This document shows, in pieces, positions 4,156 through 41,755 of a stretch of DNA of 64,000 bases. The DNA comes from an uncultured Planctomycetales bacterium. Its GTDB lineage: Bacteria > Omnitrophota > Gorgyraeia > Gygaellales > JAHJCI01. The stretch lies in NCBI GenBank assembly GCA_964592485.1, contig CAZQEY010000001.1, forward strand, positions 95,935 through 159,934. The letters are read 5' to 3'. Under the pieces are notes generated by a model. It worked only from the letters and a program-made list of their open reading frames with translations, made no database searches and was not told the DNA's origin. The position numbers were made by a program, and so were the translations under genes. The stretch's first letter is position 1. Every line of letters begins with the position of its first letter.

Positions 4156-5645
4156 TACTTCTGCTGATAGATATCTCTAAGTTGTTTAAATTTCGCATTT
4201 CCCACTTCATCAAATTTCTCAGCCCTGTTGATTTCGTTCCAGAACTGCTTAGACATCTTTACATACATCACAAAAGTTCGCATAAGACCTCGAATCTCTT
4301 GGTTTAATAATTGTGGCATCTCAAGAATGCTGCCCAGTGTCACACATATCGGTAAGGGCAAATCTTCTCTGATAAATCCATTTTTTTTACAGACTTCATA
4401 CAATTCAGTACCCTTGAAGGGATAAAATGCATAAGCATTACAGCTATCAAAAATAGTCTTTCTATTTAACTCAATAGTATCAAATATCAATTCCCTTGTT
4501 TCAAAAGGAAAACCAATTATATTATTTACCGTCAAAGGAATACCAGCCTCATTTATTATTTTAGTAGCTTCTATAAATATTTCATTATCAAACTCTTTCT
4601 TTAATACCCTTTTTCTAAACTCAGGATTACCATGTTCAAGACCTATTGACATTCGATGGCAACCTACACTTTTAAGTCGCCTCATTCTATCTGGCTTAAC
4701 AGTTTCGGGCCTGGTCTGAATCCAAAAGGGGAGTTTAAACTCTGAATACATCTCTATAAATTCATCAAATTCCCTGTCAGACATTACCAGGAAAGTATCG
4801 GAGGCAAAATATATATATTCGGCCTGCCATTTATCAATCAGGAATTTTAGTTCTTGATGTATTTTTTTTATGCTTTTTTTCCTGAAAAAATTGTGTACAT
4901 TATTGTTCCTATATAGCTTGGCAATAGTCGGAGAATTGCAGAATGTGCAATGAAAAAGGCAACCCCTATTGGTCTCCATAGGAACCATTCTATATACCCC
5001 TCCTGCCATTGGCCGATATAATCTGCGAGAGTCAAAAACACTGTAGTCAGGTATAGGTAGAGAGTTTAAATCTACAATTCCATTCAAAGCATTCCTAATA
5101 ATTCTGCCATCGTTTTTCTTTACCCATAAATTCTTAATTCTCGTATAATCTCTTGCTTCAGCTAAACTTTCGCATAACTCTAATAAGGCAATCTCGCCTT
5201 CCCCAACACATACGAAGTCAACAGAAGGATTCGCTATAGCCTCATCAGGAGCTACAGTAGGAAATACCCCTCCTGCTACTACCGGTATTTTATAATCCTC
5301 AATGGCCTCCAACATTCTAGACCCCATATGATACGTCCCTTCCAATGCCGATAGAGCAATAAGATTGGGTTTAAAATCTTCTACTTTTGCTCTAAGATCC
5401 TGGAACATATCTCCTTTGTTCGAGTAAATACCCCTTTCCTGAAAACTAAAAGGTTTTACTTGCAAATGTTCTAACTTTGCTAAATCAGAATTAATCGTTT
5501 CTGTTTCATAAAATGTGCTATCAAATACATCAACTTCAATCCTGCGCTCTTTCAATATAGCAGCCATAATGCCTATAGCAATAGGGGGTGGATTAAGAAA
5601 AGGCTCATTAGGATAAAGAAACAGGACTTTAAATTTAGAATTCAC
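4149..5645 (-). CDS. cobalamin (B12)-binding radical SAM enzyme (class B rSAM)
   Basis: N-terminal B12-binding-like Rossmann region, then a CxxxCxxC cluster motif (RGCLFHCTFCNS). It is a paralog of the rSAM at 35075-36571 (shared IKNLWVKK, CVGEGE and DLNSLP blocks). Confidence 0.85.
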   Translation of the reverse strand: MNSKFKVLFLYPNEPFLNPPPIAIGIMAAILKERRIEVDVFDSTFYETETINSDLAKLEHLQVKPFSFQERGIYSNKGDMFQDLRAKVEDFKPNLIALSALEGTYHMGSRMLEAIEDYKIPVVAGGVFPTVAPDEAIANPSVDFVCVGEGEIALLELCESLAEARDYTRIKNLWVKKNDGRIIRNALNGIVDLNSLPIPDYSVFDSRRLYRPMAGGVYRMVPMETNRGCLFHCTFCNSPTIAKLYRNNNVHNFFRKKSIKKIHQELKFLIDKWQAEYIYFASDTFLVMSDREFDEFIEMYSEFKLPFWIQTRPETVKPDRMRRLKSVGCHRMSIGLEHGNPEFRKRVLKKEFDNEIFIEATKIINEAGIPLTVNNIIGFPFETRELIFDTIELNRKTIFDSCNAYAFYPFKGTELYEVCKKNGFIREDLPLPICVTLGSILEMPQLLNQEIRGLMRTFVMYVKMSKQFWNEINRAEKFDEVGNAKFKQLRDIYQQKYC

Positions 5646-7645
5646 CCTTCTACGCTCCTGAGGAGATTATCATAGTATTGTTTGTCGTCTAAATAAATAT
5701 TCAAATATTTATTTAAGAATTTTCTATAACCATTCCCGTCAATATCTCGCCTATTTTGCATAATACGAATCACAGTATTAAATAACTCAACTGGATTATT
5801 TATATATATTGCTAAATTACTAAGCTTAGATAAAGGGCAAAGGTCAATTATACTATAAAGAGAGGGAACGATAACCGGAATACCATTGTAAATTGCCCAG
5901 AAAACCGAAGAAGACTCCTTTACAATCATTGCTTTTGATTCCGGTATAATCTCTTGCAAACGCTTATTTGTAAACTTAAATACCTTGCTGTTTATATCCA
6001 ACCCCATCCTCCTAGCCACCTTCTGGATAGGGTCGCAAGGATGCGTCTTAAGTAAGATATCGAAGTTTAAATTCTTGTCATTAAAGGCATGAAATAATAA
6101 CAGTAGCATTTCTCGATTCTCAAGCGGACAAAGAGAAAACGGCACGACAACCTGACCCTTTCTCCTTTCCTTTATGGTTAAGATATCTGGAGATTCTCTA
6201 AAATCATGAAATCTAAATCCGCCTAAAATAAATAATTTTTCTCTAGGCCAACAACCCTGAAGAAGAATATCTCTGGTGATACTCCCTACACAACCCAAAT
6301 AATCTGGGGCAGGACAATATTTTACATAGTCATTTCCCCTTAAATCCTCTGGATGGTCGAAATAATTAAGCATTAACAACGGCACTATTGAATGTTGCAT
6401 CCCAACACATGTAATATCTCCTCTTTTTGCACAGGCAACAATTAATGCTTTCTCCCAGGATTGCATCTCTGCAAAATAAAGCACTTTTATATATTTGGGG
6501 AGATCTTCAATAATGTTTGAAAATGCTATGTAATTGCTAATTCCCCAAATAAGTATTTTGCCCATAAAAGATGACAGAAAATCCTTCTTAAGTATTTCCC
6601 ATAAATTTATCCTGAGATTAGTAACAGGATCCCGATAAACAAAGTGAGCTCTATATCTATTTAGATTTATCAATGCCCTGACAGATAAGAGAAAATAGGT
6701 AAAAATAATTCTACTGAATTCTTTATATCCTAACCATTCTTCCAGTATAAAAAATTTACTGTTTTCTTTAACCCTCTTGGCTATCTTCAAAGTCTTAGAC
6801 CAATTATATGAGTTTATAGGAACGAACATCCCCAGCCATGCTACTTTGTTTTTATGATTACTCTCTATAGAATTTTGAAGAGAGCCATAAGCCAGATTGA
6901 CAAATCTTCCATCTTTAAGTTTTGTTTCATCAACAGAAGGAAAAGCAGTGACAGCCAAAATCTTGGAATCACGGAGATATTCTCTTTGATTTTTAAAGCG
7001 CCTCTCTAACCTCTTAGCGCCAATGGCTCTTTGTAATAGTGCCAGAATAAATTTTGCCACTCTTAACATTTCTATGAATATTAATTTAATCTCTCCCGTA
7101 TAGCCATGATAACTTCTGTAGCCAGAAATAGATACGAAATCATCTAGTCCAGAAGCAGATAATACATTGCCAATTACACCATTTTTTCTATTTAACCATA
7201 TTTGTTCACACCCTAATTCATTTTTTAAATGTAATATAGTCAAAATTTTGCAAAACTTAGTGAAAGCAGAGCTTTTATAAGGATTCTTTTCTGCAATTAA
7301 GGAAAACCACCATACAGAAAATTCACCAGAAGGATAAGTGAAATATCTTTTTAAATTTATACCATTAAAAAAATCCTTTTCTCCGAGTTCATGAATAAAG
7401 TTTATATATTCCTGTTTTAACTCAAACGCCTTTTTATTAAACCTATATATAAAATCTACTAACTCAGCTTCTATAGTAGTTTTTTTCTCTAAAGATTTCT
7501 TAAGCTGTTGGGCAAGTCTATCCGCATTATATTCAATCGGACATAAGAAAACTTCCTCTATATTATTATTATCGCCAGAAATCCTCCTCAAAACTTCAGT
7601 CTCTCTGTCTCTTCCTGTGAGTACCAGTAAAATTCTTTTGCCCAT
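5642..7645 (-). CDS. large hypothetical protein with a TagF-like (CDP/CMP-donor GT-B) C-terminal domain
   Basis: C-terminus has an HP motif (KTHPCDP) and ...MIVKESSSVFWAIYNGIPVIV. This resembles the catalytic His-Pro and D-Y-S-S...P-V-I blocks of TagB/TagF glycerophosphotransferases and the HP motif of bacterial sialyltransferases. Its 4-nt overlap with the downstream rSAM suggests co-translation. Confidence 0.45.
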   Translation of the reverse strand: MGKRILLVLTGRDRETEVLRRISGDNNNIEEVFLCPIEYNADRLAQQLKKSLEKKTTIEAELVDFIYRFNKKAFELKQEYINFIHELGEKDFFNGINLKRYFTYPSGEFSVWWFSLIAEKNPYKSSAFTKFCKILTILHLKNELGCEQIWLNRKNGVIGNVLSASGLDDFVSISGYRSYHGYTGEIKLIFIEMLRVAKFILALLQRAIGAKRLERRFKNQREYLRDSKILAVTAFPSVDETKLKDGRFVNLAYGSLQNSIESNHKNKVAWLGMFVPINSYNWSKTLKIAKRVKENSKFFILEEWLGYKEFSRIIFTYFLLSVRALINLNRYRAHFVYRDPVTNLRINLWEILKKDFLSSFMGKILIWGISNYIAFSNIIEDLPKYIKVLYFAEMQSWEKALIVACAKRGDITCVGMQHSIVPLLMLNYFDHPEDLRGNDYVKYCPAPDYLGCVGSITRDILLQGCWPREKLFILGGFRFHDFRESPDILTIKERRKGQVVVPFSLCPLENREMLLLLFHAFNDKNLNFDILLKTHPCDPIQKVARRMGLDINSKVFKFTNKRLQEIIPESKAMIVKESSSVFWAIYNGIPVIVPSLYSIIDLCPLSKLSNLAIYINNPVELFNTVIRIMQNRRDIDGNGYRKFLNKYLNIYLDDKQYYDNLLRSVEG

Positions 7646-7684: not shown

Positions 7685-8572
7685 CTATTTCCTTATCTTA
7701 ATACCTCTATCATGCTCATGTATAGACTGTAATAATTCCAAGATTCCCTGGCCAAGATCTACGTAACTTGAATTAACTAACCGCTTAGCCAATTTTGGTC
7801 TAAAATTATAAGGGGTTATCTCATAATGCTCCTCGTAATCCTCTTTCGTAAACTCTAATTCAATTTCGTTATTCATCATCTCTTTAATCATTATTAACAG
7901 ATCCTTAATTCGCATGGGTTGATGCCCTGATATCATTACATATTGATTTTTAAACTCATCATCCAATATCTTAACACTTAGACGTGCAGCATCATAAACA
8001 TGTATGTACTCTCGTAACTCTTCGCCATCTCCCCTGCGTGTAATCTTCTTCTCAATTAGAGCTTGCATTAAAGTGTTGTAAATCCAGTTGCGCGCGTCAG
8101 CTCGAGGACCATATAAAGACCCATATCTTAAAATAGTGAAATCGATGTTATGCTGTTTATGGTAACATTCAATTATCAATTCACAGGCCTGTTTGCTGGC
8201 TCGATAGTACGACCCTGCCTGGCTATAAACATATACAGTACTGGCGAATATAAAACGTTTAACGTTGTTCAAACAACAAGCTTCCAATATATTCGTGGTG
8301 CCAATAACATTGGTGGTGATGGTATTGTAGGGTTGAGATTTTGCTTCACCGATATCTGCAACTCCTGCAAAATGATATACCACATCCACCCCTTTAGTAA
8401 TCCTTTCAACCGCTTCTGAATCCAAAATATTTCCTACCACCATTTCTTGTGTAGGTTTTAGATAAAGCGTTGGTTTTATGTCACAGATAATGACTTGGTG
8501 ATTGTTCTCAGAAAGACAGTCAGCTACATGACTACCCAAAAAACCTGAACCTCCAAAAACTACTACTTTCAC
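7685..8572 (-). CDS. NAD-dependent epimerase/dehydratase (extended SDR)
   Basis: MKVVVFGGSGFLGSHVADCL Rossmann motif, plus YxxxK context (YYRASKQACE). Confidence 0.8.
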   Translation of the reverse strand: MKVVVFGGSGFLGSHVADCLSENNHQVIICDIKPTLYLKPTQEMVVGNILDSEAVERITKGVDVVYHFAGVADIGEAKSQPYNTITTNVIGTTNILEACCLNNVKRFIFASTVYVYSQAGSYYRASKQACELIIECYHKQHNIDFTILRYGSLYGPRADARNWIYNTLMQALIEKKITRRGDGEELREYIHVYDAARLSVKILDDEFKNQYVMISGHQPMRIKDLLIMIKEMMNNEIELEFTKEDYEEHYEITPYNFRPKLAKRLVNSSYVDLGQGILELLQSIHEHDRGIKIRK

Positions 8573-8640
8573 GATATCCCTCCTTAGATTAATTTCATTT
8601 ATTCTTTAGACATACTAAACAACCTTCCTACTAAGCTTGG

Positions 8641-9279
8641 TTATAATGAAACTAGTGAAGCATCTAGCATATTTAGATTATCTAATCGATGTTGACAGTT
8701 CACTAATTCTTTAGATTCAGAATTAATTCGTGCAATAAAATATACACCTGTATCTCCAGCAGCCTTTAAGTCTGTTATAGAATCGCCTATGAAAACGACC
8801 TCCCGCGGGGAATAGTTATTGCGTGAGATGATGCCAAGAATAATCTCTGTTTTTGAGGGAGGTGAACCATATACTTCCTTAAAATAATCACACAACTCTC
8901 GTTTTGTTACAATGTAATTAAGTTCTTCCTGGGGAGTACCCGAGGCTACAAAAAGAGAGTACTTTTTACAATTTGCTTTAAGGAACTCAATTGCACCAGT
9001 AACAAACGGTGCATTCAGTACCTCCTCTAACACTATGCTAGAAAACTTCCTGCCTAATTCCTCTTCCTGCTGAACAGATAAAGATAATCTTAATATATTT
9101 TTATAGATATACTTGAATTTTACATATCGAGATATACCCATATTCTGAATGTGATGATTTACTATTGCATTTATTTTTTTAGGATAATCTTGTTCAAAAA
9201 GTCTTCTGAAAGCTACTGTTTTAATATCAGCTGATTCGATTATTACGCCATCTAAATCAAAAATAATTGCTTTTATCAT
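8641..9279 (-). CDS. HAD-superfamily hydrolase (subfamily IA phosphatase-like)
   Basis: HAD motif I IIFDLDGVIIES and C-terminal motif VFIGDSITD. I placed the start at ATG 9279, which forms an ATGA overlap with the upstream stop; the track start at 9303 is a TTG. Confidence 0.8.
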   Translation of the reverse strand: MIKAIIFDLDGVIIESADIKTVAFRRLFEQDYPKKINAIVNHHIQNMGISRYVKFKYIYKNILRLSLSVQQEEELGRKFSSIVLEEVLNAPFVTGAIEFLKANCKKYSLFVASGTPQEELNYIVTKRELCDYFKEVYGSPPSKTEIILGIISRNNYSPREVVFIGDSITDLKAAGDTGVYFIARINSESKELVNCQHRLDNLNMLDASLVSL

Positions 9280-9938
9280 TCGAAAATTCCTGCTACCGTA
9301 CAAGGAACACTATCTACCCCTTCTACCCTAAGCGGCGCAACCCAAACCTCTTTTAAATTCTTGGTATTCTCTGGTATATCCATATCCTCTATAAGCAATA
9401 TAGGATGCCCTTCTCCTTCTGGATTTAAAAATGCTCTATGTGCTTCTCTTCCTAATTCACGGTGTTGATAAGATGATATAGAAACCCAATCAAAACCTAT
9501 AGCCCTGAGTAAAGGACGTTCTCTCCTCAACCACACTCCTAACTCTGGATTAATACCTGGATTTCGAAGACTGTAGACCTCATCTCCTCTTAATCTTCTC
9601 CAGCCAGATCTTAAAAGTAATAAATCAGCTTCTGGATTAATTTGGGCGGTTAAATCTTTATAAGATAAAATTTGTGCAGGTTGCACTTTTATTGACAATA
9701 CCTGTGGCTTGCGGAATAGCCAAAAATCTGCTTCATAATCAATAATTCTTGCGCCATTGACAAAAAAGTGAGCTGGGCAATCTATATGGGTTCCCCAATG
9801 ATTCTCCATTCCTATCCAATAAACCTGACAAGAATCACCATTCTCGATTGACTTCACCTGTCGTACTCTCATATTTTTTTTAATTGAACCATAAACAGGA
9901 ATCTGTGCCGATAATTTGTAGGACAGGTATTTTATCAT
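9276..9938 (-). CDS. putative cyclase / kynurenine-formamidase-family metal hydrolase
   Basis: HWGTHIDCPAHF matches the HxGTHxDxPxH signature of the cyclase family. Confidence 0.65.
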   Translation of the reverse strand: MIKYLSYKLSAQIPVYGSIKKNMRVRQVKSIENGDSCQVYWIGMENHWGTHIDCPAHFFVNGARIIDYEADFWLFRKPQVLSIKVQPAQILSYKDLTAQINPEADLLLLRSGWRRLRGDEVYSLRNPGINPELGVWLRRERPLLRAIGFDWVSISSYQHRELGREAHRAFLNPEGEGHPILLIEDMDIPENTKNLKEVWVAPLRVEGVDSVPCTVAGIFE

Positions 9939-10846
9939 TACTCCCTTAATCCCCCCAGTAGGTTTCTTGCCGCTTGCATTTCCATCTCTACCCTTGCCTC
10001 TTTGGCATAAGAGCCTATGTGAGGAGTCAAAACAACATTCTCCAACTCATGAAGCCGCCCCTTGTAAGGTTCCTCAGTAAATACATCCAAAGCAGCCCCG
10101 GCAAGATGCCCTCCACGAATAGCTCTATATAAGCCATCTTCGTCCACAGCGGTTCCGCGTGAGACATTTACCAGCCAGGCCCCTTTTTTCATCTGTGATA
10201 ATTCCTGTTCTCTTAATATCTTATCATTGCCTGAAATGTGGATTGAGACGATATCAGCCCATTGAAGTAACTCTCTAAGAGACAAGCGCTCCAACCCTAA
10301 CAATCTATCTGCAACATAGGGATCGTTATAAACTATCTTACAAGCAAAAGGTTTTAACAATTCAGCGACCTTCTGACCAATACGACCAAAACCTATTATT
10401 CCCACTCTTTTCTGGTAAAGCAGATTTCCCATCAGCTTTTCCCATCTTTCATTTTTAATGGCGACATTCATAAGATTGATTTTTCTCAAAAGATTTAAAA
10501 TCAATCCTACAGTTAACTCAGCCACTGCAAGGGTTGGTGCATCTGGAGTATTAAATACCTTTATTCCTAATCTCTTTGCGACATCCAGGTCAACATTATC
10601 AAGACCTGCACCGCAACGCGAAATAACCTTCAGGTTAGTCAATCTCTCCATAATATCAGAGCCTAGTACTTCGGTCCCTGAAATAATACCAACGACATCT
10701 CTGCATATATTTATAACCTCATCTTTATTTAATCTCCTACCATACGGATTCAATATTACAGCCATTCCTTTCCTTTCTAAAAGGCTTAATGGCGCTTTAT
10801 CGTATTTGCCAAATGATGTCGTTGTGATAGCGATTCTCTTATTCAT
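9938..10846 (-). CDS. D-isomer-specific 2-hydroxyacid dehydrogenase (short SerA/GhrA-like)
   Basis: NAD-binding GIIGFGRIGQKVAE. Catalytic-region blocks NVSRGTAVDE and ALDVFTEEP are typical of D-2-hydroxyacid dehydrogenases. Confidence 0.85.
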   Translation of the reverse strand: MNKRIAITTTSFGKYDKAPLSLLERKGMAVILNPYGRRLNKDEVINICRDVVGIISGTEVLGSDIMERLTNLKVISRCGAGLDNVDLDVAKRLGIKVFNTPDAPTLAVAELTVGLILNLLRKINLMNVAIKNERWEKLMGNLLYQKRVGIIGFGRIGQKVAELLKPFACKIVYNDPYVADRLLGLERLSLRELLQWADIVSIHISGNDKILREQELSQMKKGAWLVNVSRGTAVDEDGLYRAIRGGHLAGAALDVFTEEPYKGRLHELENVVLTPHIGSYAKEARVEMEMQAARNLLGGLRE

Positions 10847-14303: not shown

Positions 14304-14338
14304 ACTAACATTCCCCTTTATTTTATATTGCAGACACA

Positions 14339-15869: not shown

Positions 15870-15888
15870 ATTTCTAATTCTATTAATA

Positions 15889-16314: not shown

Positions 16315-16482
16315 TACGTTTGCTCCTCTTTTTTAAAAGATCGTTGTTTAATATTATCAACTCACACACTCTATTCGTTCCACAGATTGTATATATAAAG
16401 TTTCATTATACATTATCTCTTTACTTCATTCGCCTATAGAAATATTTGATTTCTCTTAGAACAAAAACTGATAAAATAATTT

Positions 16483-26950: not shown

Positions 26951-26988
26951 ATTTTACCCCTCTGCCTAAGTTACTTTTTATTAAATCT

Positions 26989-28568: not shown

Positions 28569-28596
28569 CTAGAATTATTTCCTCAGTTTTTATTTA

Positions 28597-29649: not shown

Positions 29650-29656
29650 CGTATCC

Positions 29657-30277: not shown

Positions 30278-30293
30278 TGATATTCTCTTTTTT

Positions 30294-32509: not shown

Positions 32510-33297
32510 CCCCCATCCACAACTAGGTTATGGCCTGTTACATATGTGGAAAGGTCGCTGGCAAGATATACAACAGCACCTTTTATATCCTCTTCAGTTG
32601 CCATACGTTGTAACGGTGTGCGATTAATATAACGTGACAAAAATGGCTCCTTATGATTTCTCATTACGCCTCCAATAGTAATTGCATTAACTCGAACTGC
32701 TGGAGCAAGCACTGCTGCCAGCCAACGCGTAAGCTGAAGCAAACCTCCTTTACTTGTACTGTAGGCTGCAGGATTGCCCAAATTAGTATCCTCATACAAC
32801 CGCATATCAGGAGCAACCATTCCATAAATTGAGCCAATATTAATAACTGACCCTTTGCCCGAAGCGCGTAAAGCCTTCTCGCAGCTCTGCACAAGAACAA
32901 ATATCGATGTTAGATTTACTTCCAAAACCTTTTGCCAAGTTTGTACGGATTGCTCCTGAAAACGAACATTCCATCCCTTCAAATCAGACTCACCTACAAA
33001 AGCTGCGCAATTCACAAGAATATCCAATCTCCCAAATTTTTCCAATACTTTGGTACAAACCTTCTTCACTTCATCAACTTTAGCTAAATCTATCAGAAGT
33101 GGCATAACTTCAACATTATATACCTTCTGAATACTCTCTACCTTCTCAAAACAAGCCTTTTTATTGCAATCAAGCAACACAACACAGGCTCCGACTTCTG
33201 CCACTGCTTCTGCCATGATAGAACCGATATGCCCGGCTCCTCCAGTAATTAACGCAACTCTTCCCTCTAAACTCATCAATTCCTGAACAGATCTCAT
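32494..33297 (-). CDS. classical SDR oxidoreductase
   Basis: VALITGGAGHIGS glycine motif and the catalytic YSTSKGG context. Confidence 0.8.
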   Translation of the reverse strand: MRSVQELMSLEGRVALITGGAGHIGSIMAEAVAEVGACVVLLDCNKKACFEKVESIQKVYNVEVMPLLIDLAKVDEVKKVCTKVLEKFGRLDILVNCAAFVGESDLKGWNVRFQEQSVQTWQKVLEVNLTSIFVLVQSCEKALRASGKGSVINIGSIYGMVAPDMRLYEDTNLGNPAAYSTSKGGLLQLTRWLAAVLAPAVRVNAITIGGVMRNHKEPFLSRYINRTPLQRMATEEDIKGAVVYLASDLSTYVTGHNLVVDGGWTVW

Positions 33298-34004
33298 TAA
33301 TTCCTCTCCTTCTTTCTTATTAAAAATTCAGCAATTTCCAAATCCAAAGAAGTATCAATATCCAATGCCCTATACGCAGGAACTATTACTGCCTTTACCT
33401 TTCCTGCAAACAACGATGACATTTGGCAAACATATGAAGCACGTGCAGCATACGCAACAGTAGTCATATCATATACCAGAGGAGCATCCTGACGCCGATT
33501 AATAATAGTTTGTGATTGAATAACCAGCTGCGCATTATCTTCGTCATCAAGAGTAACCATATTAAAATACGGATTGCGCCCTGCTTCTTTTACCGTGATA
33601 ACAATATCGGCATCACTATTTAATAACCGCTCAATACAGGCCTGAACATCTTCAACTGCACGCAAAGGAGATGTGGGAGGAATAGATACTAACACATCAA
33701 CTTTATTTCCTGTTTGTTTTTCAATCGTCTCAACTGCATGCCTCCAGGCCAGTAGTACAGATGCATCATCAGTGGATAATTGCGCAGGTCTCCTAAAGGG
33801 AACTTCGGCACCATAGCGTTGTGCAATTGCCGCGATTTCCTCATCATCCGTAGAAACGATAAGCTTATCAATCAAAGAGACAGCACGACCAACTTCAATC
33901 GCATAGGCAATGAGTGGCTTACCAGCTAATTCTTTAATATTCTTACATGGTAGGCCCCTGGAGCCTCCACGCGCAAAAATTGCACCCAACACATAAGGTT
34001 TCAT
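33297..34004 (-). CDS. acylneuraminate cytidylyltransferase (CMP-nonulosonate synthetase, NeuA/LegF-like)
   Basis: LGAIFARGGSRGLPCKNIKELAGKPLIAY matches the NeuA N-terminus. Confidence 0.85.
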   Translation of the reverse strand: MKPYVLGAIFARGGSRGLPCKNIKELAGKPLIAYAIEVGRAVSLIDKLIVSTDDEEIAAIAQRYGAEVPFRRPAQLSTDDASVLLAWRHAVETIEKQTGNKVDVLVSIPPTSPLRAVEDVQACIERLLNSDADIVITVKEAGRNPYFNMVTLDDEDNAQLVIQSQTIINRRQDAPLVYDMTTVAYAARASYVCQMSSLFAGKVKAVIVPAYRALDIDTSLDLEIAEFLIRKKERN

Positions 34005-35005
34005 AATGAAATTACTTCGTGAGTTTCTGCCGAATGTCGCGCTGCATTTATCATCCTAACCACACGCCTAGCCTCGTCTATTGATACCAACGGCTCTTGA
34101 TTATTAGCGACACATTGAAAAAAGTGCTTCAACTCTGTTTTGTACATCTCGTTCCTGTCTAATTTACCTGGTGTGCACAAATCAGTCCAATTACCAGTAT
34201 CAACAGAATACAGTTGCACGCGATTATCGCCATCGAAATTCCACACCACTGTTCCTTTGGTCCCAACCACACGGCAGGAGCGGTTCGCTGCATAGTCTAT
34301 CATATCAAGATGAATATTACCTAAAGCGCCGTTCTCAAACCTCAAACAAATTTCAGCTATATCCTCAACATCAATCTCCAAATCACTAACCTTACCCAGC
34401 AAAGCGCGTATCTGGGTCACCTCACCCGCTAACCACCGCACATAATCTAACTCATGACTCAACTCAAACAAAACACCGCCACCTAAATCTTTACGTGCGC
34501 TAACTTTATCTTGATAATTCTCTCCAGGACGCCAATTTAACAGATTCTGCCCAACAGATGCCTTAACCGACAAAACTCTTCCTATACAACCCTGCTCCAA
34601 TGCTTTTTTTAAAATTTTAATCGGCTCAAAGAATCGTAATACATATCCAATCATTACTACAAGCTTACGCCTCCTTGACTCTTGCAATAATTCATCTAAG
34701 CCATCATCATTAACTGATAATGGTTTTTCAATAAACAAATGGCTATCTTGTTTGGCAAACATTAACGCTGTCTGGCAATGCATTGTAACAGGATTCGTTA
34801 TAAAAGTAACACTGGGTTTCCATCTTAGCGCATCATCCTGAGAAAAAAACACATTCTCTACTAATGGCTGTAATTCACCCAAAGCAGCTTCTTGAGAAAA
34901 CTGTCTGTAAACTGCTATCTGAATGTTGGCATCAATACTCTTTATGTTCTTAATGTGCCGATTCGCTATACTTCCCAACCCCACAACTAAGATTTTCATA
35001 CTCAT
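34001..35005 (-). CDS. Gfo/Idh/MocA-family NAD(P)-dependent oxidoreductase
   Basis: MKILVVGLGSIANRH N-terminal Rossmann fold with the EKP motif (FIEKPL). Confidence 0.8.
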   Translation of the reverse strand: MSMKILVVGLGSIANRHIKNIKSIDANIQIAVYRQFSQEAALGELQPLVENVFFSQDDALRWKPSVTFITNPVTMHCQTALMFAKQDSHLFIEKPLSVNDDGLDELLQESRRRKLVVMIGYVLRFFEPIKILKKALEQGCIGRVLSVKASVGQNLLNWRPGENYQDKVSARKDLGGGVLFELSHELDYVRWLAGEVTQIRALLGKVSDLEIDVEDIAEICLRFENGALGNIHLDMIDYAANRSCRVVGTKGTVVWNFDGDNRVQLYSVDTGNWTDLCTPGKLDRNEMYKTELKHFFQCVANNQEPLVSIDEARRVVRMINAARHSAETHEVISL

Positions 35006-35074
35006 ACCGTTTTGCTTCTGAATACTCGCAGAGCTATTGTAGACACTGCAGTCGCCAAATGCATATGCGGCTCT

Positions 35075-36571
35075 TTAATCATTTTTTTCATACTCCTGCA
35101 AATATTTTATTAGTTCAGGGAATACCCTTTGTGCAAGTTGTTCGTCTTTCTCACATTTTTCAAGGATAGGAAAAAATTGTTCTGGAAGTTTAGTGTAAAA
35201 TGAAAAGGTTCTTACTAAACCGTTGATTTCATCTCTATTTAAATGAGGTGAATCTAAATTTGCTTTGACACTGCTATAATCTGGAGTTTCTTTTAAGAGC
35301 CCAAACTCCTTTGTAATTTCCGCCAAGCGTGTTTTTGGATACGGATTATAAGCCGCCACAGAAGAAGTGGCTGGCTTAACTTTTCGGTTCAGATGAATAG
35401 TATCAAATACCATCTGCCTTGTTTCAAAGGGTAGTCCTATCATATTATAAGCCGACACTCTTATACCGCTTCTCTTTACAATCTCGTATTTTTTAATAAT
35501 TTCCCCATCAGATATATCTCTATTAAGGACATATTTCCTTACCCAAGGATTCCCACTTTCAATAGCCATTGCCATTGTGATGCAACCCATTTCTTTAAGA
35601 CAATCTACTTTTTCTTCTGTCACTGTTCGTGTTCCAGCGTAAACAATAAAAGGTAAACCGACTTCTTTCTTATAAAGCTTAGCTAATTCTCTTAAATAAC
35701 TAACCGGGAATATTGTAAAATCTTCATCCCAAAATCTAATTGCATTAAATTGATATCTGTCCTTTAATTCTTTAAGCTGCCTTACGGCTACTCTCGGGCT
35801 TTTTCGTCTGTGATAACTCCCACATCCGCTAAATAGTTCCTGTAAGAAATGATTTGAACAGTAGGAACACTTGAATACACATCCTCGACTAATCTCGGTA
35901 TTCATCATCTTGTATATCTTGCCATCAAGAGGACGATAAAAATCATATTCACAAAAATCAGAGAAATCCTGAGCCGGAAGAGTATCTAAATCCTTTAAAT
36001 TTCGCAGTGGATTTTTGTAAATAGTCTCTGGGTTCTTTTTATCTTTTATCCATAAATTTTTAATTTTATTTATGGGCTTCTTCTGGAACTTCTCACAAAG
36101 TTCAACCAGTGCATCTTCGCCTTCACCAACACAAATAATGTCGATGGATCCCTCCTTAATAACTTCGTCAGAACAAATCGTTGGATGAATTCCGCCAATA
36201 ATAATAGTATTTTCCGGAAAATGTTTCTTAATGATTCTACTGCATTTTAAGCCTAGGGGATAAGTACCAGATGTAGTAGTTATACCAACAATATCAGCTT
36301 TGAACTCATCCATAGTATGAACTAAATCTTCCTCGAGAGATTCTATCGCTTTGCGCGGCGCAGGAGTAATTGGTGGAGGTGGAGCGGGTTTAAACATCCC
36401 AAATGATTCCTTAATCGATTGTAAATTTACCTGGGGAACATATTCTGAACAATCAAAAACTGCTACAGAATGACCTTCGGCTCTCAATACAGCACTCAAT
36501 GTAGTTAGGGCTATGGGGATATCTCCGTGTTCGTGAATTTGGGGATAAATAAATAATACTCTCATACGCAA
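35075..36571 (-). CDS. cobalamin (B12)-binding radical SAM enzyme (class B rSAM)
   Basis: CxxxCxxC (RGCVFKCSYCSN) after a B12-binding-like domain. It is a paralog of 4149-5645. Confidence 0.85.
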   Translation of the reverse strand: MRMRVLFIYPQIHEHGDIPIALTTLSAVLRAEGHSVAVFDCSEYVPQVNLQSIKESFGMFKPAPPPPITPAPRKAIESLEEDLVHTMDEFKADIVGITTTSGTYPLGLKCSRIIKKHFPENTIIIGGIHPTICSDEVIKEGSIDIICVGEGEDALVELCEKFQKKPINKIKNLWIKDKKNPETIYKNPLRNLKDLDTLPAQDFSDFCEYDFYRPLDGKIYKMMNTEISRGCVFKCSYCSNHFLQELFSGCGSYHRRKSPRVAVRQLKELKDRYQFNAIRFWDEDFTIFPVSYLRELAKLYKKEVGLPFIVYAGTRTVTEEKVDCLKEMGCITMAMAIESGNPWVRKYVLNRDISDGEIIKKYEIVKRSGIRVSAYNMIGLPFETRQMVFDTIHLNRKVKPATSSVAAYNPYPKTRLAEITKEFGLLKETPDYSSVKANLDSPHLNRDEINGLVRTFSFYTKLPEQFFPILEKCEKDEQLAQRVFPELIKYLQEYEKND

Positions 36572-36599
36572 GTGTATTCTATTTAGATAATTAATAATG

Positions 36600-37775
36600 C
36601 TAACTAAAAAAGGTCTTTATATTCTCTACAACGAAATTTACTTCTTCTTCTTTTAAATTAACACTACAGGGCAAATTGATACAACAATTATATGCCTGCA
36701 CAGCCTGCTTAACGCCATAACTTTGAAACTGGTTGTACATCGGTAAAGTATGCATCAACTTCCATATCGCCCTGACTTGAATTTCTCTTGCAATAAGATA
36801 TTCTATCAAGGCTATTCTGTATTTCTGCGGCACTTTTATAGTATAAAACCAGAAATTACTCTTTGCCCATGATTCCTCCCATAAGAACTCAATTTCATGC
36901 AACCCTGATAATAACTCCCTGTATAGAATAGCATTATTCCTTTTAATAGCTAAGAAATCGTGTAATCTTTCCATTTGGGCAACACCCAAAGCTGCTTGTA
37001 TGTTAGTAAGACGATAATTATAACCGATCTCATCATGCTCCTGTTCATAAACATGTTCCCGTTTTGCCTGTGTTGTTAGATGCCTAATCCGTTGTGCTAA
37101 ACACTGATCATCTGTAACTACCATCCCTCCGCCGCCTGTGGTTATAATTTTGTTTCCGTTAAAAGAGAAACAACCAACTTCTCCTATTGAACCTGTCTTT
37201 TTTCCTTTATATTCGGAGCCAAGACTTTCAGTAGCATCTTCAATTATAGTAATATTATATTTCTGAGATATTTCTAATAATGAGTTCATATCTACAGGAT
37301 GACCAAATATATGTACTGGGATAATTGCCTTTATTCTTCTACAAGTCTTTTTGTTATAAGCATATCCTTCCTTAGTACGTCTACACTCATTGACTAAAAA
37401 ATCAGCCACCTTTTGGATATCCATACATAGTGTTTTAATATTACAGTCCATAAAGACAGGGCTTGCCCCACAATATCTAATGGCATTTACTGGCGCAATA
37501 AAGGTAAGTGTGGGAACGATAACCTCATCATTAGGCTTAACTCCACATGCCATAAGACTTACGTGCAGCGCGGCTGTACCATTCACTGTAGCAACAGCAT
37601 ATTTAGCCCCTACATAATCGGCTACAAGATGTTCTATATTATTAACAAAAGTACCGGCTGAAGAAACCCAACCCGTATCAAGACACTCTTTTAAGTATTT
37701 CCATTCATTACCTGATATTTCTGGTTCCGATAAAGGGATTATATGTTTAATTGCAATATTAGACATTATAGACAT
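36600..37775 (-). CDS. DegT/DnrJ/EryC1/StrS-family PLP-dependent sugar aminotransferase (LegC/PseC-like)
   Basis: The N-terminal region (LSEPEISGNEWKYLKECLDTGWVSS...VNGTAALH) and the lysine-containing GGGGMVV...K context are typical of DegT aminotransferases. Confidence 0.85.
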   Translation of the reverse strand: MSIMSNIAIKHIIPLSEPEISGNEWKYLKECLDTGWVSSAGTFVNNIEHLVADYVGAKYAVATVNGTAALHVSLMACGVKPNDEVIVPTLTFIAPVNAIRYCGASPVFMDCNIKTLCMDIQKVADFLVNECRRTKEGYAYNKKTCRRIKAIIPVHIFGHPVDMNSLLEISQKYNITIIEDATESLGSEYKGKKTGSIGEVGCFSFNGNKIITTGGGGMVVTDDQCLAQRIRHLTTQAKREHVYEQEHDEIGYNYRLTNIQAALGVAQMERLHDFLAIKRNNAILYRELLSGLHEIEFLWEESWAKSNFWFYTIKVPQKYRIALIEYLIAREIQVRAIWKLMHTLPMYNQFQSYGVKQAVQAYNCCINLPCSVNLKEEEVNFVVENIKTFFS

Positions 37776-38757
37776 CCCATTTATATCTATTAAGATTTTC
37801 TTTATGTTTAAACCATTTTATGGTTTCCAGAAGTCCTTCTTGTAAAGAAACTTTGGGCTTCCAATTGGTCAACTTTCTTATCAATCTATTGTCACACACC
37901 AAACGTTTGACTTCACTTCTACCTGGTCTTTTTCTTGCGACTTCACAAGTAATTCTTGCTTTAGGTTTTATCTGTTTTATTATTAGTCCTGCGAGGTCGC
38001 CGATAGTTGTCTCCTGACCTGATCCAATATTAACTACCTTACCAATAGCTTTATCGCATTTAACAAGAGCCATTAACCCTTCACAAATATCCTGTACGTA
38101 GTTAAAATCTCTTGTTGGGAAAAGTGAACCAAGTCTTATTTCGTTGTTTTCATTTAATAGCTGAGTAATTATAGTAGGAATAACTGCTCTTGCAGACTGC
38201 CGTGGACCGTATGTATTAAATGGCCTGGCAATTACCACCGGCAACCCAAAGGATCTATAGAAACTCTCTGCTACAGCATCAGCAGCGATTTTCGAGGCAG
38301 AATACGGAGATTGAGGCTGTAGCGGATGTTTCTCATCTATAGGAACATACTTGGCTGTGCCGTATACTTCAGATGTAGATGTAACAACTACCCGCTTAAT
38401 ATTATAATCGCGGCAGGCTTGCAGAATATTTAAAATACCTTTAATATTTGTATTCACATAAGAATCGGGGGAATGATAAGAAAACGGTATCCCTATTAAA
38501 GCTGCTAAATGAAAAACTACATCTATATCCTTTATTGCTCTTCTAACACCGTTATTATCCCGGATATCACCAGTAAAAACCTCTATTTTGTTTAATTTAT
38601 CCTTTGGAAAGGTATCAAGCCATCCCCAAGAATTAAAAGAATTATAATAAACAAAGGCTTTAACATTACAATTGGCCTTAAGTAAACTCTCTACTAAATG
38701 ACTGCCAATAAATCCACAAGCACCGGTAACTAAAATCCTTTTGCCTTTTAACTCCAT
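37759..38757 (-). CDS. NAD-dependent nucleotide-sugar dehydratase/epimerase (candidate LegB-like 4,6-dehydratase)
   Basis: RILVTGACGFIGSHLVESL and the YSASK catalytic motif. Adjacency to the aminotransferase suggests the 4,6-dehydratase step. Confidence 0.65.
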   Translation of the reverse strand: MELKGKRILVTGACGFIGSHLVESLLKANCNVKAFVYYNSFNSWGWLDTFPKDKLNKIEVFTGDIRDNNGVRRAIKDIDVVFHLAALIGIPFSYHSPDSYVNTNIKGILNILQACRDYNIKRVVVTSTSEVYGTAKYVPIDEKHPLQPQSPYSASKIAADAVAESFYRSFGLPVVIARPFNTYGPRQSARAVIPTIITQLLNENNEIRLGSLFPTRDFNYVQDICEGLMALVKCDKAIGKVVNIGSGQETTIGDLAGLIIKQIKPKARITCEVARKRPGRSEVKRLVCDNRLIRKLTNWKPKVSLQEGLLETIKWFKHKENLNRYKWDVYNV

Positions 38758-38772: not shown

Positions 38773-40209
38773 TTATTCTCCTTCTCGCTTATAATGCCTG
38801 GAGCCTCTAAACTTGTAATCTCCTTTAAAATATAAATTATAAAACTGATCAATCAGAACTTCAGTTTGGTTCACATCTTGATTTGTGTGTTTATAATAGT
38901 CTTCAATAAGTTCTTTATTGGCCTCGAATAAACACTCATAGAATCTTTTTTCTGAGATTTCTGTAAAATTAATTGTTAATAAATCTGAATTCTTGAATCG
39001 CTCAAAGAACTCCTCTGGGCCCGATAACAACCCTCTATCTATAGCCTCATAATATAAATCACAACCCGGATAAGGCGTAACTGGTCTTATAGTCCTAATT
39101 TGATTATAGGTATTATATTTCTTTATAAACGCGACATTATCCTTAAGAACCTCCTCAGTATCTCCTTTATTACCCCATAAAAAATTCAATCCCATTCCAA
39201 TGCCCACTTTTTTTGTAAGTTCTGCGGCTTTAATGTTCTGTTCCACTGTGGACTTTTTATTCATAAGGTCCAATACTCTTTGGCTTGAAGACTCCATACC
39301 AAAGTTAAGAAATGTACAACCGCAATCCTTTAACATCTCCAGCAAATCTTCATTCAGTACATCTACTCTAGCATTACAATCAAACTTTATTTTGAGATTA
39401 TTGGCCTTGAGAGAATCCTTAAGTTCTTTTATGCGTTTTTTTGAAAAAATAAATAATTCATCGGATAAAGAAAAATAAGTTATTCCAAAATCATTGTTTA
39501 ATACCTTCATCTCTTCAATAATACTTTCAATACTCCTGAGTCTAATGCCTTTCTCAATTCTATAACAAAAATTACATTTGCCAACGCAACCCCTGCTTGT
39601 CAAGAAACTTATATACCTATCGGTCTTTTCGTGATGAAAAAGTTTAATACAGGTAGCGTAATTATCAACTGGAAATAAGTTCCACTCAGGAAAAGGAATA
39701 TTATTTAAATTTTTAATGGGTTCTCGTCTCTCATTAATATAGCACCTACCGTTTTCTTTATATGCAATCCCTTTAATTTTAGAAAGCTTGCGCCCCCCGG
39801 CTATCTTGCAATGCAACAGTTCAACAATCGTCTCTTCTGCTTCTCCAATAGCTATAATATCTGCTTTGGTTTTATCTAGTATATATTCTGGGATAGGTGA
39901 GGGCCCATGGCCGCCTAACACCAAGTAAGCATTCTTTTTGCACTCATTTATAACCTTGCATAAATCAAGGATGGTTTCCTTAAATCTTGCTGCCATAAAA
40001 CCAATACCGATTAAATCAAACTCGTTCTCTAACAAAAACTTTGATAATTCTTCATTCGAATAATGAAAAACATCCTGCGAATATACAGTTACTTGGGCTC
40101 CCTCTTTTTTTAATACCGAGGCCAAATACCCTATACCCAGAGGAAATACGTTATCATCCTGATAAACATCATGAACTATTAAGAGTACTCTACCTAATTC
40201 TTTCTCCAT
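38773..40209 (-). CDS. cobalamin (B12)-binding radical SAM enzyme (class B rSAM)
   Basis: CxxxCxxC (RGCVGKCNFCYR). I placed the start at ATG 40209 with an AGGGAGA RBS; the track start at 40236 would overlap the upstream gene by 47 nt. Confidence 0.85.
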   Translation of the reverse strand: MEKELGRVLLIVHDVYQDDNVFPLGIGYLASVLKKEGAQVTVYSQDVFHYSNEELSKFLLENEFDLIGIGFMAARFKETILDLCKVINECKKNAYLVLGGHGPSPIPEYILDKTKADIIAIGEAEETIVELLHCKIAGGRKLSKIKGIAYKENGRCYINERREPIKNLNNIPFPEWNLFPVDNYATCIKLFHHEKTDRYISFLTSRGCVGKCNFCYRIEKGIRLRSIESIIEEMKVLNNDFGITYFSLSDELFIFSKKRIKELKDSLKANNLKIKFDCNARVDVLNEDLLEMLKDCGCTFLNFGMESSSQRVLDLMNKKSTVEQNIKAAELTKKVGIGMGLNFLWGNKGDTEEVLKDNVAFIKKYNTYNQIRTIRPVTPYPGCDLYYEAIDRGLLSGPEEFFERFKNSDLLTINFTEISEKRFYECLFEANKELIEDYYKHTNQDVNQTEVLIDQFYNLYFKGDYKFRGSRHYKREGE

Positions 40210-41755
40210 ATATATTTTCTCCCTTATATTGCCCATTTTCCCATAAGCTCTGTATGGCTCTGGTTACGGAAATTACATTTTCTTTAGGAGAAATATTTAC
40301 TAATTTCTTATAGCTACTATCGACATATCCTTGGAAACTGAACTTTTCTAAAGCATAGATAAATGCCCTTACATTCTGAGTATTAACTTTATATCCCTTT
40401 TCTATCTTCGATAAAGCCTCTTTGCAGCTAGACTGAGTCGGAGTATAGAATACCCCTTCGCAACCTCTGTACCATGCGTATCCAAAAATAAGAACTGGCT
40501 TGCCTCTTATTACCGCCTCCCAGCCCACCGTTCCAGTGACTGTGGCGACTGCTTTGGAATTATCAATCAGGTCAAACGATGATACTGAAAGCGACACTAG
40601 TTTTACATTAGGTAGTGAAGCAATATCATCATAAAAATAAAGGGGTCTTGAACGTTCGCCTACTGCATAGGGGCTGAATTGTACTATATGTTCCTTTACA
40701 TACAAACTCCACCCTTTAGGTAACAATTTAGAAAGTAAATCTATCATAAGCAGCTGGTTAACAAAGACTCCTCCATCAGGAGAAGTAGTTTTTTCTGGTT
40801 GATAATGAAGCACAACATAGATATATGGTTTATCAATACAAACCGGCTCTGCCAATTTATTATAACAAGACTTGAGCTTTCGTTTATATTGCTCAGCTTT
40901 AAATTTACACAGCCAGATATATTTAAGATAAGTCATCTTTGAATCATCAAATTTCCTGCCCTTTAGTTTTATATAATTATGTGGCGCAGGCTTATAAATA
41001 AACTGTATATATTTACATAAAGTCCGTAATTTCTTCATAATAATAGTAATGAGATTATTCTCTTTAGCTTTTTGTAAGAATTCATGCTTTATATACGAAG
41101 GGAACGCAATATCATAAGAGCCTAAAACCTTTTTCCAATAATTCTCTGCAATAGGTGACAATGTAAGCTCTAAAGGTTGTCTGCGAGATAGCAGTTCTTT
41201 ATATAAAGATATTACTGGTTCAATCCTATCTTCGAATCTCTCTATCGGATAGAATAGCCCTTCGATGGTTAAGGTTAAAAACGTAACTGTTCTTATTCCT
41301 TGTCTCTTACATAAAATATATAATATATAATCATACACTATATGCGGAGAGGCAGGAAAAACAACAACATCTGGTTGATAATGTTGCAGAACTGAAAGCC
41401 AATACTTAATCTGCAGATGATAAAGTCCTTCTCGCTCCTGATAGGAAAAAGCACAACCAGGATCCATCCTATCAAGCATATTGAATATAGTTGATTCATA
41501 AACTGCTAAATCCTGTAACAATGCTTGATCTAGGGTTGCTAGATTAAGCCCTGAGCAATCATGCGGACTATGCCCTCTGATTGCATCTATGGTATAATGG
41601 AATACTATCTCGGGAAAAGCTCGCTTGACAATACTTTCCAAATCCGGCATGGCAATCCAATAACACGGCTGCCAATCGCTTTCTCTTTTGAGACTCACAG
41701 CCACATCCACCCAAAAGGACTCAGAACACTCGGCAAAGATTGCTTTAATAGCCAT
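40190..41755 (-). CDS. hypothetical protein with a KpsC/KpsS-like (Capsule_synth-type) C-terminal motif; candidate CMP-ulosonic-acid transferase
   Basis: C-terminal TVTGTVGWEAVIRGKPVLIFG resembles the conserved t-x-S-S-x-G-x-E-A-l-x-x-G-k-P-V block of KpsC/KpsS beta-Kdo transferases. YQPEK sits where the other paralog-like proteins carry an HP motif. Confidence 0.45.
   Translation of the reverse strand: MAIKAIFAECSESFWVDVAVSLKRESDWQPCYWIAMPDLESIVKRAFPEIVFHYTIDAIRGHSPHDCSGLNLATLDQALLQDLAVYESTIFNMLDRMDPGCAFSYQEREGLYHLQIKYWLSVLQHYQPDVVVFPASPHIVYDYILYILCKRQGIRTVTFLTLTIEGLFYPIERFEDRIEPVISLYKELLSRRQPLELTLSPIAENYWKKVLGSYDIAFPSYIKHEFLQKAKENNLITIIMKKLRTLCKYIQFIYKPAPHNYIKLKGRKFDDSKMTYLKYIWLCKFKAEQYKRKLKSCYNKLAEPVCIDKPYIYVVLHYQPEKTTSPDGGVFVNQLLMIDLLSKLLPKGWSLYVKEHIVQFSPYAVGERSRPLYFYDDIASLPNVKLVSLSVSSFDLIDNSKAVATVTGTVGWEAVIRGKPVLIFGYAWYRGCEGVFYTPTQSSCKEALSKIEKGYKVNTQNVRAFIYALEKFSFQGYVDSSYKKLVNISPKENVISVTRAIQSLWENGQYKGENIYGERIR

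Follow-up and report, generated by a model that had tools for sequence, protein, structure and literature searches.

Candidate transferases for CMP-activated acidic sugars in a large surface-glycan locus of an uncultured Omnitrophota bacterium

Which enzymes attach the acidic sugars that a very large bacterial surface-glycan locus appears equipped to make? The question is raised by a stretch of 64,000 nucleotides (contig CAZQEY010000001.1, positions 95,935 to 159,934) from an uncultured bacterium of the Omnitrophota, which was analyzed as a whole and is called the window here; all coordinates are those of the window. The locus would make several acids activated with cytidine monophosphate (CMP), namely, one of the legionaminic acid (Leg) type, one of the pseudaminic acid (Pse) type, and at least one more from an aldolase/KdsB-like/NeuA-like module. 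An earlier note, made from the sequence alone, had proposed four long open reading frames (ORFs) as transferases of such acids. All four are present on the minus strand, with every peptide quoted for them, and are referred to here as protein A (5642 to 7645; 667 amino acids), protein B (16483 to 18456; 657 amino acids), protein C (23599 to 25665; 688 amino acids), and protein D (40190 to 41755; 521 amino acids). The reading that we favor, as a probable one, is that A to D are cytidine-nucleotide-dependent transferases attaching CMP-activated acidic sugars to a surface glycan, in which case they would add these acids to the growing chain. That D is a nonulosonic acid transferase is very likely; for A and B, the assignment as cytidine-nucleotide-dependent transferases is about as probable as the overall reading or slightly less so, and for C the chances fall a little short of even. 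We infer catalysis, the pairing of donors with enzymes, and the roles of single residues. The proposal of the earlier note thus stands well for D, by profile and context, whereas A, B, and C remain candidates that match no TagF or sialyltransferase Pfam model.

Protein D matches the Pfam family Capsule_synth (PF05159) above its gathering score (32.3 versus 20 bits; E value, 9.2e-8) over residues 379 to 431, and PF05159 also matches 37 of 37 sampled relatives of D (best E value, 7.6e-14). The family comprises 7984 clusters (50% identity) at an E value of ≤1e-3 and 1516 at ≤1e-30, mostly of about 500 amino acids and matched over their full length. When compared with Protein Data Bank (PDB) sequences, the D family profile found Escherichia coli KpsC at about 1e-9, Thermosulfurimonas KpsC at 6e-5, and WbbB of glycosyltransferase (GT) family GT99 at 0.044; judged by these profile matches, D is homologous to KpsC (GT107). 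The alignment sets K354-E355-H356 of D on the VKxHP motif of KpsC, D itself having H-I and not H-P, and sets T405...E413...F424-G425-x-x-W428-Y429 on the KpsC nucleotide-binding segment, in which D reads T405-x-T-G-T-x-G-W-E413; a second alignment of D with KpsC used a KpsC-N fragment rebuilt from the literature and tool output. The peptide TVTGTVGWEAVIRGKPVLIFG (residues 405 to 425), which the earlier note had taken for the end of the protein, is indeed present, but about 100 residues remain between it and the C terminus. Motif conservation was counted within family samples spanning 20 to 60% identity (21 sequences for A, 27 for B, 23 for C, and 37 for D). In the D sample, K354 and E355 occur in 37/37, H356 in 29/37, P357 in 17/37, and E413 in 36/37.

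GT107 enzymes have a modified GT-B architecture, in which the N-terminal domain is reduced and a helical subdomain is present. In GT99 and GT107 enzymes, the histidine of the HP motif protonates the CMP phosphate, and the aspartate of an invariant QXXXD motif, 33 to 34 residues upstream, forms a covalent sugar adduct; the residues named are Asp160 of KpsC-N and Asp232 and His265 of WbbB (PMC9587256, PMC10148158). The text of the KpsC paper gives "His94" as the general acid (PMC10148158); our alignments put the KpsC HP histidine about 34 residues past Asp160, near residue 194, in agreement with WbbB (Asp232 and His265), and the spacing between HP and Asp was taken from WbbB and the alignments. 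A QXXXD motif with an Asp nucleophile is not present in D. It has [H/Q]317-x-x-x-E321, which sits 35 residues before H356 (33 to 34 in WbbB and KpsC), with E321 in 37/37 relatives. By its spacing, E321 may occupy the position of the Asp nucleophile of GT99 and GT107, the hidden Markov model alignment stopping short of this segment. If D works in this way, it would move a Leg- or Pse-type acid from a CMP donor, with H356 protonating the leaving phosphate, the T-x-T-G-T...E413 segment holding CMP, and E321 standing at the nucleophile position. Residues 1 to 300 of D match no profile or PDB sequence; this N-terminal region of about 300 residues contains an invariant P137-H138.

The gene context of D relatives points in the same direction. 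Among 41 metagenomic loci of at least 8 kb, a NeuB-type synthase lies within 10 kb in 31 and some gene of a nonulosonic acid pathway is present in 36; 9 have an adjacent ATP-binding cassette (ABC) exporter. A single-sequence scan of genome contigs with D found no relatives. The Capsule_synth proteins Gtr59, KpsS1, and KpsS2, encoded beside nonulosonic acid modules, have already been proposed as nonulosonic acid transferases because of the same gene-context pattern (PMC4487303). Elsewhere, KpsS1 is cited as a characterized retaining Pse transferase that founds family GT118 (PMC12887879). Because the Pfam and KpsC matches, the gene context, and this precedent combine, we take D to be a new, divergent member of a known enzyme class and, among the four proteins, the strongest candidate for a Leg or Pse transferase.

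How A, B, and C relate to D and to one another was approached through their families. In pairwise BLASTP, none of the four proteins matched another significantly. The resemblance between A and B that the earlier note had seen was borne out by their family profiles, whose last 122 columns, starting at the HP motif, can be aligned (hhalign, 95.4%; E value, 1.7e-8); by profile comparison, A and B thus have homologous C-terminal domains. The corresponding comparisons of C with A (48%) and with B (15%), and of D with A (25%), B (0.3%), and C (6%), were below significance; the nonsignificant alignments of C with A, C with B, and D with A are nevertheless in register. A single family for all four proteins is not claimed, because the hhalign comparisons of C and D with the others fall short of significance.

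In A, the HP motif lies in KTHPCD (residues 533 to 538; K533-x-H535-P536) and is followed by ESSSVFWAIYNGIPVIV (residues 577 to 593), which includes S578-S579-S580; H535 occurs in 21/21 and P536 in 20/21 family members. In B, the motif lies in RPHPT (residues 514 to 518; R514-P-H516-P517) and is followed by SYSSTCIEEALQNKVPVVLYD (residues 556 to 576), which opens with S556-Y-S-S-T-x-I-E563-E564; R514 is found in 27/27 and H516 in 25/27, and S556, S558, S559, T560, E563, and E564 are each found in 27/27. Protein C has K504-P-K-K in place of HP, and thus no HP-type histidine in its C-terminal domain, together with S557-T558...E562 and the peptide STPAIESAISGIPAI (residues 559 to 573); K504 and E562 both occur in 23/23. 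The start of C is probably the ATG at 25659, two codons past the GTG, since the database copy (P0001) has 686 amino acids, and the motif numbers of C follow this 686-amino-acid form. A further histidine is invariant or nearly so in all three families, placed after a β-strand and 114 to 130 residues before the HP or KP motif (H418 of A in 21/21, H386 of B in 27/27, and H390 of C in 21/23). TagF and TarL have a catalytic histidine in the acceptor-side domain (H444 and H300, respectively) and, in addition, an HP-type histidine in the C-terminal domain.

AlphaFold models of B (pLDDT, 91.5; pTM, 0.91) and C (pLDDT, 87.5; pTM, 0.88) have the GT-B fold suggested by the earlier note, with TagF and TarL among the top structural neighbors, and UDP-GlcNAc 2-epimerases rank first in the Foldseek search with the B model (E value, about 1e-9). 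The predicted fold of both is GT-B of the epimerase/TagF-like branch, and no one family stands out. Structural alignments cover about 310 to 340 residues, leaving roughly half of B and C outside the canonical core; the near-identical order of secondary-structure elements over the full length of the two models suggests that they share an architecture. A length two- to threefold that of the minimal domains had been given for the proteins; this is too high, the actual ratio being about 1.3- to 2-fold. In the B model, strand 509-514 leads into R514-P-H516-P, and strand 553-556 leads into S556-x-S-S-T, with which helix 559-567, the one that holds E563 and E564, begins; in the C model, strand 499-504 leads into K504-P-K-K, and helix 558-565 begins with S557-T558...E562. 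The secondary structure of the models thus puts the HP/KP and SS/ST motifs after β-strands two and four of the C-terminal Rossmann domain, and such post-strand positions in GT-B enzymes bind the nucleotide phosphate and ribose. For A, a GT-B fold may be supposed from B through the homologous C-terminal domain with its HP motif and Ser-rich segment. We propose that this Rossmann domain would carry a cytidine-donor signature, (K/R)xHP plus S-S-(S/T) in A and B and KPKK plus S-T...E in C, and that the enlarged N-terminal half of A, B, and C would bind the acceptor. A hydrophobic helix at about residues 190 to 208 is conserved in the C family (19/23 members) and may touch the membrane in C. A membrane anchor of this kind common to A, B, and C was considered and rejected, the helix being kept in 19/23 of the C family, in 6/21 of the A family, and not in B.

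The families of A, B, and C, most of whose members are from Omnitrophota, are small, with 22, 48, and 30 clusters, respectively, among the 5.8 billion searched (5.8e9), and the closest relatives of the window proteins, at 50 to 60% identity, are from metagenome-assembled genomes of "Candidatus Omnitrophota." Protein A matches TIGR04326 over profile positions 21 to 572 of 602 (E value, 2.8e-57; 194.4 bits, below the 250-bit cutoff) and has no Pfam match; three of its homologues are labeled TIGR04326 by JGI, and A is best regarded, from this match, as a divergent TIGR04326 relative just below the cutoff. Protein B matches NF046086 over residues 496 to 566 (26.5 bits; E value, 3.3e-6), below the 200-bit cutoff, as do 23/27 members of its family at an E value of ≤0.01 (best, 4.2e-9). 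B thus appears related to NF046086 by its C-terminal domain and is not a member. NF046086 is built on enzymes of Tannerella forsythia; when these are deleted, the O-glycan loses its terminal Pse or Leg derivative (PMC5420450). Through the same domain, 24/27 members of the B family match TIGR04396, far below its cutoff; some also match TIGR04331, and some are tagged PF27859 ("LIC12162"). Some members of the C family are tagged PF27878 ("PFTS_polysacc"); the family had no match in the profile library used here. Family profiles of A, B, and C gave chance hits only against PDB sequences, and no papers on TIGR04326 or PFTS_polysacc were found in the literature searched.

Gene neighborhoods bear on the donors of A, B, and C. 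B has relatives in 33 species-representative genomes, which come from the Omnitrophota, Planctomycetota (including anammox bacteria), Acidobacteriota, Desulfobacteraceae, Dehalococcoidia, Alphaproteobacteria (including Pelagibacteraceae), SAR86, Legionellaceae, and a bacterium of the candidate phyla radiation (CPR). Within 10 kb of these relatives, a CTP_transf_3 gene lies in 22 loci, a KdsB-type cytidylyltransferase in 15, and an HpcH aldolase, a 2-hydroxyacid dehydrogenase, and a B12-binding radical S-adenosylmethionine (SAM) enzyme in 14 loci each of 33; a NeuB-type synthase lies in 5. In seven Omnitrophota-like genomes, an orthologue (65 to 71% identity) of CTP2, the NeuA-like cytidylyltransferase of the window, stands immediately 3' of B. 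The order B, CTP2, haloacid dehalogenase (HAD)-type phosphatase, HpcH, KdsB, dehydrogenase, short-chain dehydrogenase/reductase (SDR), A is found in loci L012 and L016, and in L016 a homologue of a membrane protein of the window (protein E) follows. Genes for the dehydrogenase, in some cases a cyclase, the HAD enzyme, and the SDR precede A in the window and in L118, L119, L120, L012, and L016. In nine genomes, a relative of C is encoded upstream of B and on the same strand, B being the constant neighbor of C, while the gene cluster that precedes C varies, being of the Leg type in the window, L002, and L003 and an aminoethylphosphonate-type phosphonate cassette in L118. A, B, and C thus belong to a conserved supermodule around NeuA/KdsB-type activating enzymes, and CMP-linked acid donors are therefore favored. 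A pairing of C with legionaminic acid was dropped, since C follows the phosphonate cassette in L118.

Support of an indirect kind comes from the window as a whole, which holds four CMP-acid synthetases and, if A to D were not counted, would seem to lack transferases for their products. The five CMP- or CDP-forming enzymes counted in the earlier note are all there: four CTP_transf_3 proteins (12739 to 13521, 14339 to 15067, 33297 to 34004, and 49594 to 50442) and a glucose-1-phosphate cytidylyltransferase, which forms CDP-glucose (687 to 1481; TIGR02623, 346.8 bits versus a 300.25-bit cutoff). A Pfam survey of 54 ORFs of at least 150 amino acids found no further glycosyltransferase besides a GT2 gene and a PseG-like enzyme. 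The suggestion that the proteins might found new families of transferases is right in part: A, B, and C do belong to uncharacterized families, but all four proteins already fall in or beside catalogued ones: TIGR04326 for A, PF27859 ("LIC12162")/TIGR04396/NF046086 for B, PF27878 ("PFTS_polysacc") for C, and PF05159 for D.

Several points weigh against reading all four proteins as acid transferases. D has H-I where H-P is expected, and P357 is present in only 17/37 of its relatives; the correspondence of QXXXD with [H/Q]XXXE follows from spacing and pattern and lies outside any significant alignment. The families of A, B, and C are experimentally uncharacterized, and their names are themselves conjectural; the matches of A to C to NF046086, TIGR04396, and TIGR04326, taken together, are far below the curated cutoffs and reach a generic nucleotide-binding domain only. 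C lacks the HP histidine and, in one relative (L118), follows a phosphonate cassette and not a nonulosonic acid cluster, and the nearest structures to B are UDP-GlcNAc 2-epimerases. The predicted models cover B and C of the four proteins, and that enzymes and donors both number four is numerology and does not count as evidence.

A bolder reading, which we consider unlikely, is that A, B, C, and the genes between them form an undescribed system, in which a NeuB-independent aldolase route leads to one or two new ulosonic acids that are transferred by three new GT-B families. The intervening genes encode the NeuA-like and KdsB-like enzymes, the HpcH-family aldolase, and the cassette of phosphoglycerate-dehydrogenase-like enzyme, cyclase, HAD phosphatase, and epimerase. 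If this were true, such a system would be widespread in uncultured lineages, among them Omnitrophota, Planctomycetota, Acidobacteriota, SAR11/SAR86, and CPR bacteria.

Alternatively, A, B, and/or C could be TagF/TarL-like phosphotransferases that move a phospho-alcohol, a phospho-sugar, or a phosphonate from a CDP or CMP donor, such as a CDP-polyol or CMP-aminoethylphosphonate, leaving D as the sole nonulosonic acid transferase. The SYSS and (R)PHP motifs of B presumably resemble the DYSS and HP motifs of the TagF family, and the window has a CDP-glucose-forming enzyme. The best case can be made for C: in L118 (4537 to 9994), genes for CDP-OH_P_transf, a phosphoenolpyruvate (PEP) mutase/nucleotidyltransferase fusion, a phosphonopyruvate-decarboxylase-like thiamine pyrophosphate (TPP) enzyme, a nucleotidyltransferase, and an aminotransferase directly precede the C homologue, and the C family in some genomes might handle a CMP-phosphonate or similar donor. 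The window has no phosphonate genes, however, and the cytidylyltransferases linked to A and B are CTP_transf_3 enzymes of the NeuA/KdsB type, not CDP-alcohol synthases of the TagD, TarI, or IspD type; CTP_transf_3 enzymes of this type make CMP-ulosonates. No Glyphos_transf match was found at an E value of ≤0.1 for A, B, C, or any of the 23 C-family members, nor do the precomputed Pfam annotations of A and B homologues list Glyphos_transf, so that the description of A, B, and C as TagF-like is valid at the level of fold and motif only; the Pfam models of the sialyltransferases (GT38/GT52/GT80), families marked by D/E-D/E-G and HP motifs, likewise gave no match for A, B, or C at an E value of ≤0.1. 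On balance, phosphotransferases seem improbable.

Still less probable is that B, and possibly C, is an enlarged NDP-sugar 2-epimerase- or hydrolase-like enzyme whose freed sugar would be joined to pyruvate by the HpcH aldolase and then activated by the KdsB/NeuA-like enzymes, which would amount to a NeuB-independent ulosonic acid pathway. The B-linked module does combine an aldolase with two cytidylyltransferases and has no NeuB or NeuC of its own, and B matches Epimerase_2 weakly (16.7 bits versus a gathering score of 30.6; E value, 0.0035), as does 1/23 members of the C family (E value, 0.045). B is, however, about 290 residues longer than 2-epimerases, its family matches the Tannerella transferase family through the C-terminal domain in 23/27 members, and the locus would then be left without transferases for several CMP-acids; HP/SS-type motifs are common to epimerases, TagF, and sialyltransferases, and the fold by itself does not discriminate. 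That some of A to D are noncatalytic scaffolds, chain-length regulators, or export adaptors with a retained GT-B-like nucleotide-binding domain is very improbable: about half of each protein is without a match, D adjoins an ABC exporter (as do 9/41 of its homologues) and has lost the HP proline, but across 20 to 60% identity there is no variation in the polar residues where catalysis and nucleotide binding are expected, as is typical of active enzymes.

The preferred reading, four cytidine-nucleotide-dependent transferases, can be placed in the layout of the window, which was annotated with Pfam and NCBIfam over ORFs of at least 150 amino acids. Of 58 such ORFs, 56 are on the minus strand, the GC content is about 35 to 40%, and the window is a single-strand surface-glycan locus of more than 60 kb; the plus-strand ORFs at 15895 to 16398 and 31377 to 31862 are probably spurious. 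Sizeable gaps in the otherwise tightly packed locus occur only at 15870 to 16482, 53153 to 53695, and 55775 to 56211 and may mark internal promoters. The order of transcription is from high to low coordinates, and all genes of the window described below are on the minus strand. The upstream-most nucleotide-sugar genes, for UDP-glucose dehydrogenase, RmlA-like and ManC-like nucleotidyltransferases, and several SDR enzymes, are followed by the Pse-type module, the ABC exporter, D, the Leg-type module, and C. An SDR, the GT2 glycosyltransferase, a B12-radical-SAM enzyme, and a polytopic membrane protein come between C and B, in this order. Downstream (3') of B are an SDR, CTP2, the HpcH/HpaI aldolase, the KdsB-type cytidylyltransferase, and methyltransferase and epimerase genes, then the dehydrogenase, the "cyclase," the HAD phosphatase, an SDR, and A, which is followed by a B12-radical-SAM enzyme, a methyltransferase, a second polytopic membrane protein, and the CDP-glucose-forming cytidylyltransferase.

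The Pse-type pathway (43725 to 53152) comprises PseI (43725 to 44750; 470 bits versus a 340-bit cutoff), a PseG-like/GNAT fusion, a WbuX/HisH/HisF set, a methyltransferase, a cytidylyltransferase, an aminotransferase, and a CBS-dehydratase. Two of its proteins are unusual fusions, one of a PseG-like Glyco_tran_28_C domain with a GNAT acetyltransferase (44747 to 46252; 501 amino acids) and one of an N-terminal CBS domain with a 4,6-dehydratase-like SDR (51719 to 53152; 477 amino acids). The fused transmembrane and nucleotide-binding domain (TMD-NBD) ABC exporter of the MsbA/HepA/PglK type (41805 to 43673) lies directly upstream of D. The Leg-type pathway (25754 to 38757) has a 4,6-dehydratase, an aminotransferase, a PglD-like acetyltransferase, a NeuC-type 2-epimerase (30294 to 31457), the canonical one of the locus, a NeuB-type synthase (31454 to 32509; 483 bits), the cytidylyltransferase at 33297 to 34004, a CBS-nucleotidyltransferase, and a WbuX/HisH/HisF amidotransferase set. 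The two WbuX/HisH/HisF-like sets (25754 to 28568, Leg type; 46239 to 48856, Pse type), with WbuX copies that are 32% identical, imply acetamidino groups on Leg-type and Pse-type acids alike.

The aldolase/cytidylyltransferase module (12739 to 15067) consists of the KdsB-type cytidylyltransferase (12739 to 13521; 302 bits versus a 255-bit cutoff), the HpcH/HpaI-family aldolase (13518 to 14339), and CTP2 (14339 to 15067), whose best PDB matches are NeuA enzymes. An HpcH aldolase between KdsB-type and NeuA-like genes recurs beside B in L008, L012, L016, L018, L031, L035, and L118. This trio spans distant phyla, usually with no NeuB-type synthase nearby, and might provide a way to a 2-keto-3-deoxy acid sugar that does not depend on NeuB. 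The cassette directly upstream of A (7685 to 10846) encodes a phosphoglycerate-dehydrogenase-like 2-hydroxyacid dehydrogenase (9938 to 10846), a "cyclase" (PF04199; 9276 to 9938), a HAD phosphatase (8641 to 9303), and an SDR epimerase/dehydratase (7685 to 8572; 295 amino acids), and its product is perhaps a glycerate- or hydroxypyruvate-derived unit.

Two polytopic membrane proteins, E (1562 to 3265; 567 amino acids), which has no family match and whose homologue adjoins A in L016, and F (18453 to 20132; 559 amino acids), which matches EpsG weakly and is conserved near B in L008, are both rich in hydrophobic segments and may serve as polymerases or ligases. Four B12-binding radical SAM enzymes (4149 to 5645, 20144 to 21535, 35075 to 36571, and 38773 to 40236) suggest radical methylation or other radical chemistry on the sugars. 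In other Omnitrophota loci, sulfotransferase and adenosine 5'-phosphosulfate (APS) kinase genes stand beside A or C homologues (L119, 11984 to 13850; L003, 9012 to 9992), which suggests that related Omnitrophota glycans are sulfated.

Transferases are the least known step of the bacterial pathways for pseudaminic acid, legionaminic acid, and related nonulosonic acids, and little is known of the transferases cognate to nonulosonic acids (PMC5420450). D would add a large, environmentally widespread Capsule_synth branch of about 500 amino acids that is tightly linked to nonulosonic acids, and its Glu-for-Asp and H-without-P variations, if real, bear on the double-displacement mechanism of GT99 and GT107. 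If active, A, B, and C would represent new families of GT-B transferases that act on CMP-activated acids. In combination with the aldolase/cytidylyltransferase module, they may hint at an acidic sugar that has so far gone undescribed, and they suggest that Omnitrophota devote a very large locus to an unusual surface glycan.

Among known systems, the UDP-GlcNAc 2-epimerases (WecB, MnaA, and NeuC) are alike in fold, but B and C are about 300 residues longer, and the Epimerase_2 score is below the threshold. TagF and TarL differ in that C is without the HP histidine, A to C are without a Glyphos_transf match, and the linked enzymes here make CMP-acids, not CDP-polyols. With respect to the "surface carbohydrate biosynthesis protein" families TIGR04326 (LIC13510), TIGR04396, TIGR04331/PF27859 (LIC12162), and PF27878, A to C are divergent outliers. 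The T. forsythia proteins Tanf_01245 and TFUB4_00887 (NF046086, the BFO_1060 family) are transferases of Pse and Leg derivatives. Like these enzymes, which have been described as TagB/GT-B-like (PMC5420450), B has an HP motif and a nonulosonic acid context; unlike them, B scores about 26 bits against a 200-bit cutoff in a match of 70 to 90 residues and is almost twice as long as the 365-position model.

The nearest known relatives of D are KpsC/KpsS (GT107), WbbB (GT99), KpsS1 (GT118), Gtr59, and KrkA (GT140). In contrast to KpsC, about 80 of the 521 residues of D align, and D is 130 to 200 residues longer than the KpsC module; in contrast to GT107, it has H-I for H-P and the invariant Glu E321 where spacing predicts the Asp nucleophile. 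Like KpsC, the D family aligns from the HP histidine through the (S/T)xxGxxGxE nucleotide-binding segment to the FGxxWY turn, and like Gtr59 and KpsS1, to which it was likened by description and context, D adjoins nonulosonic acid synthesis modules.

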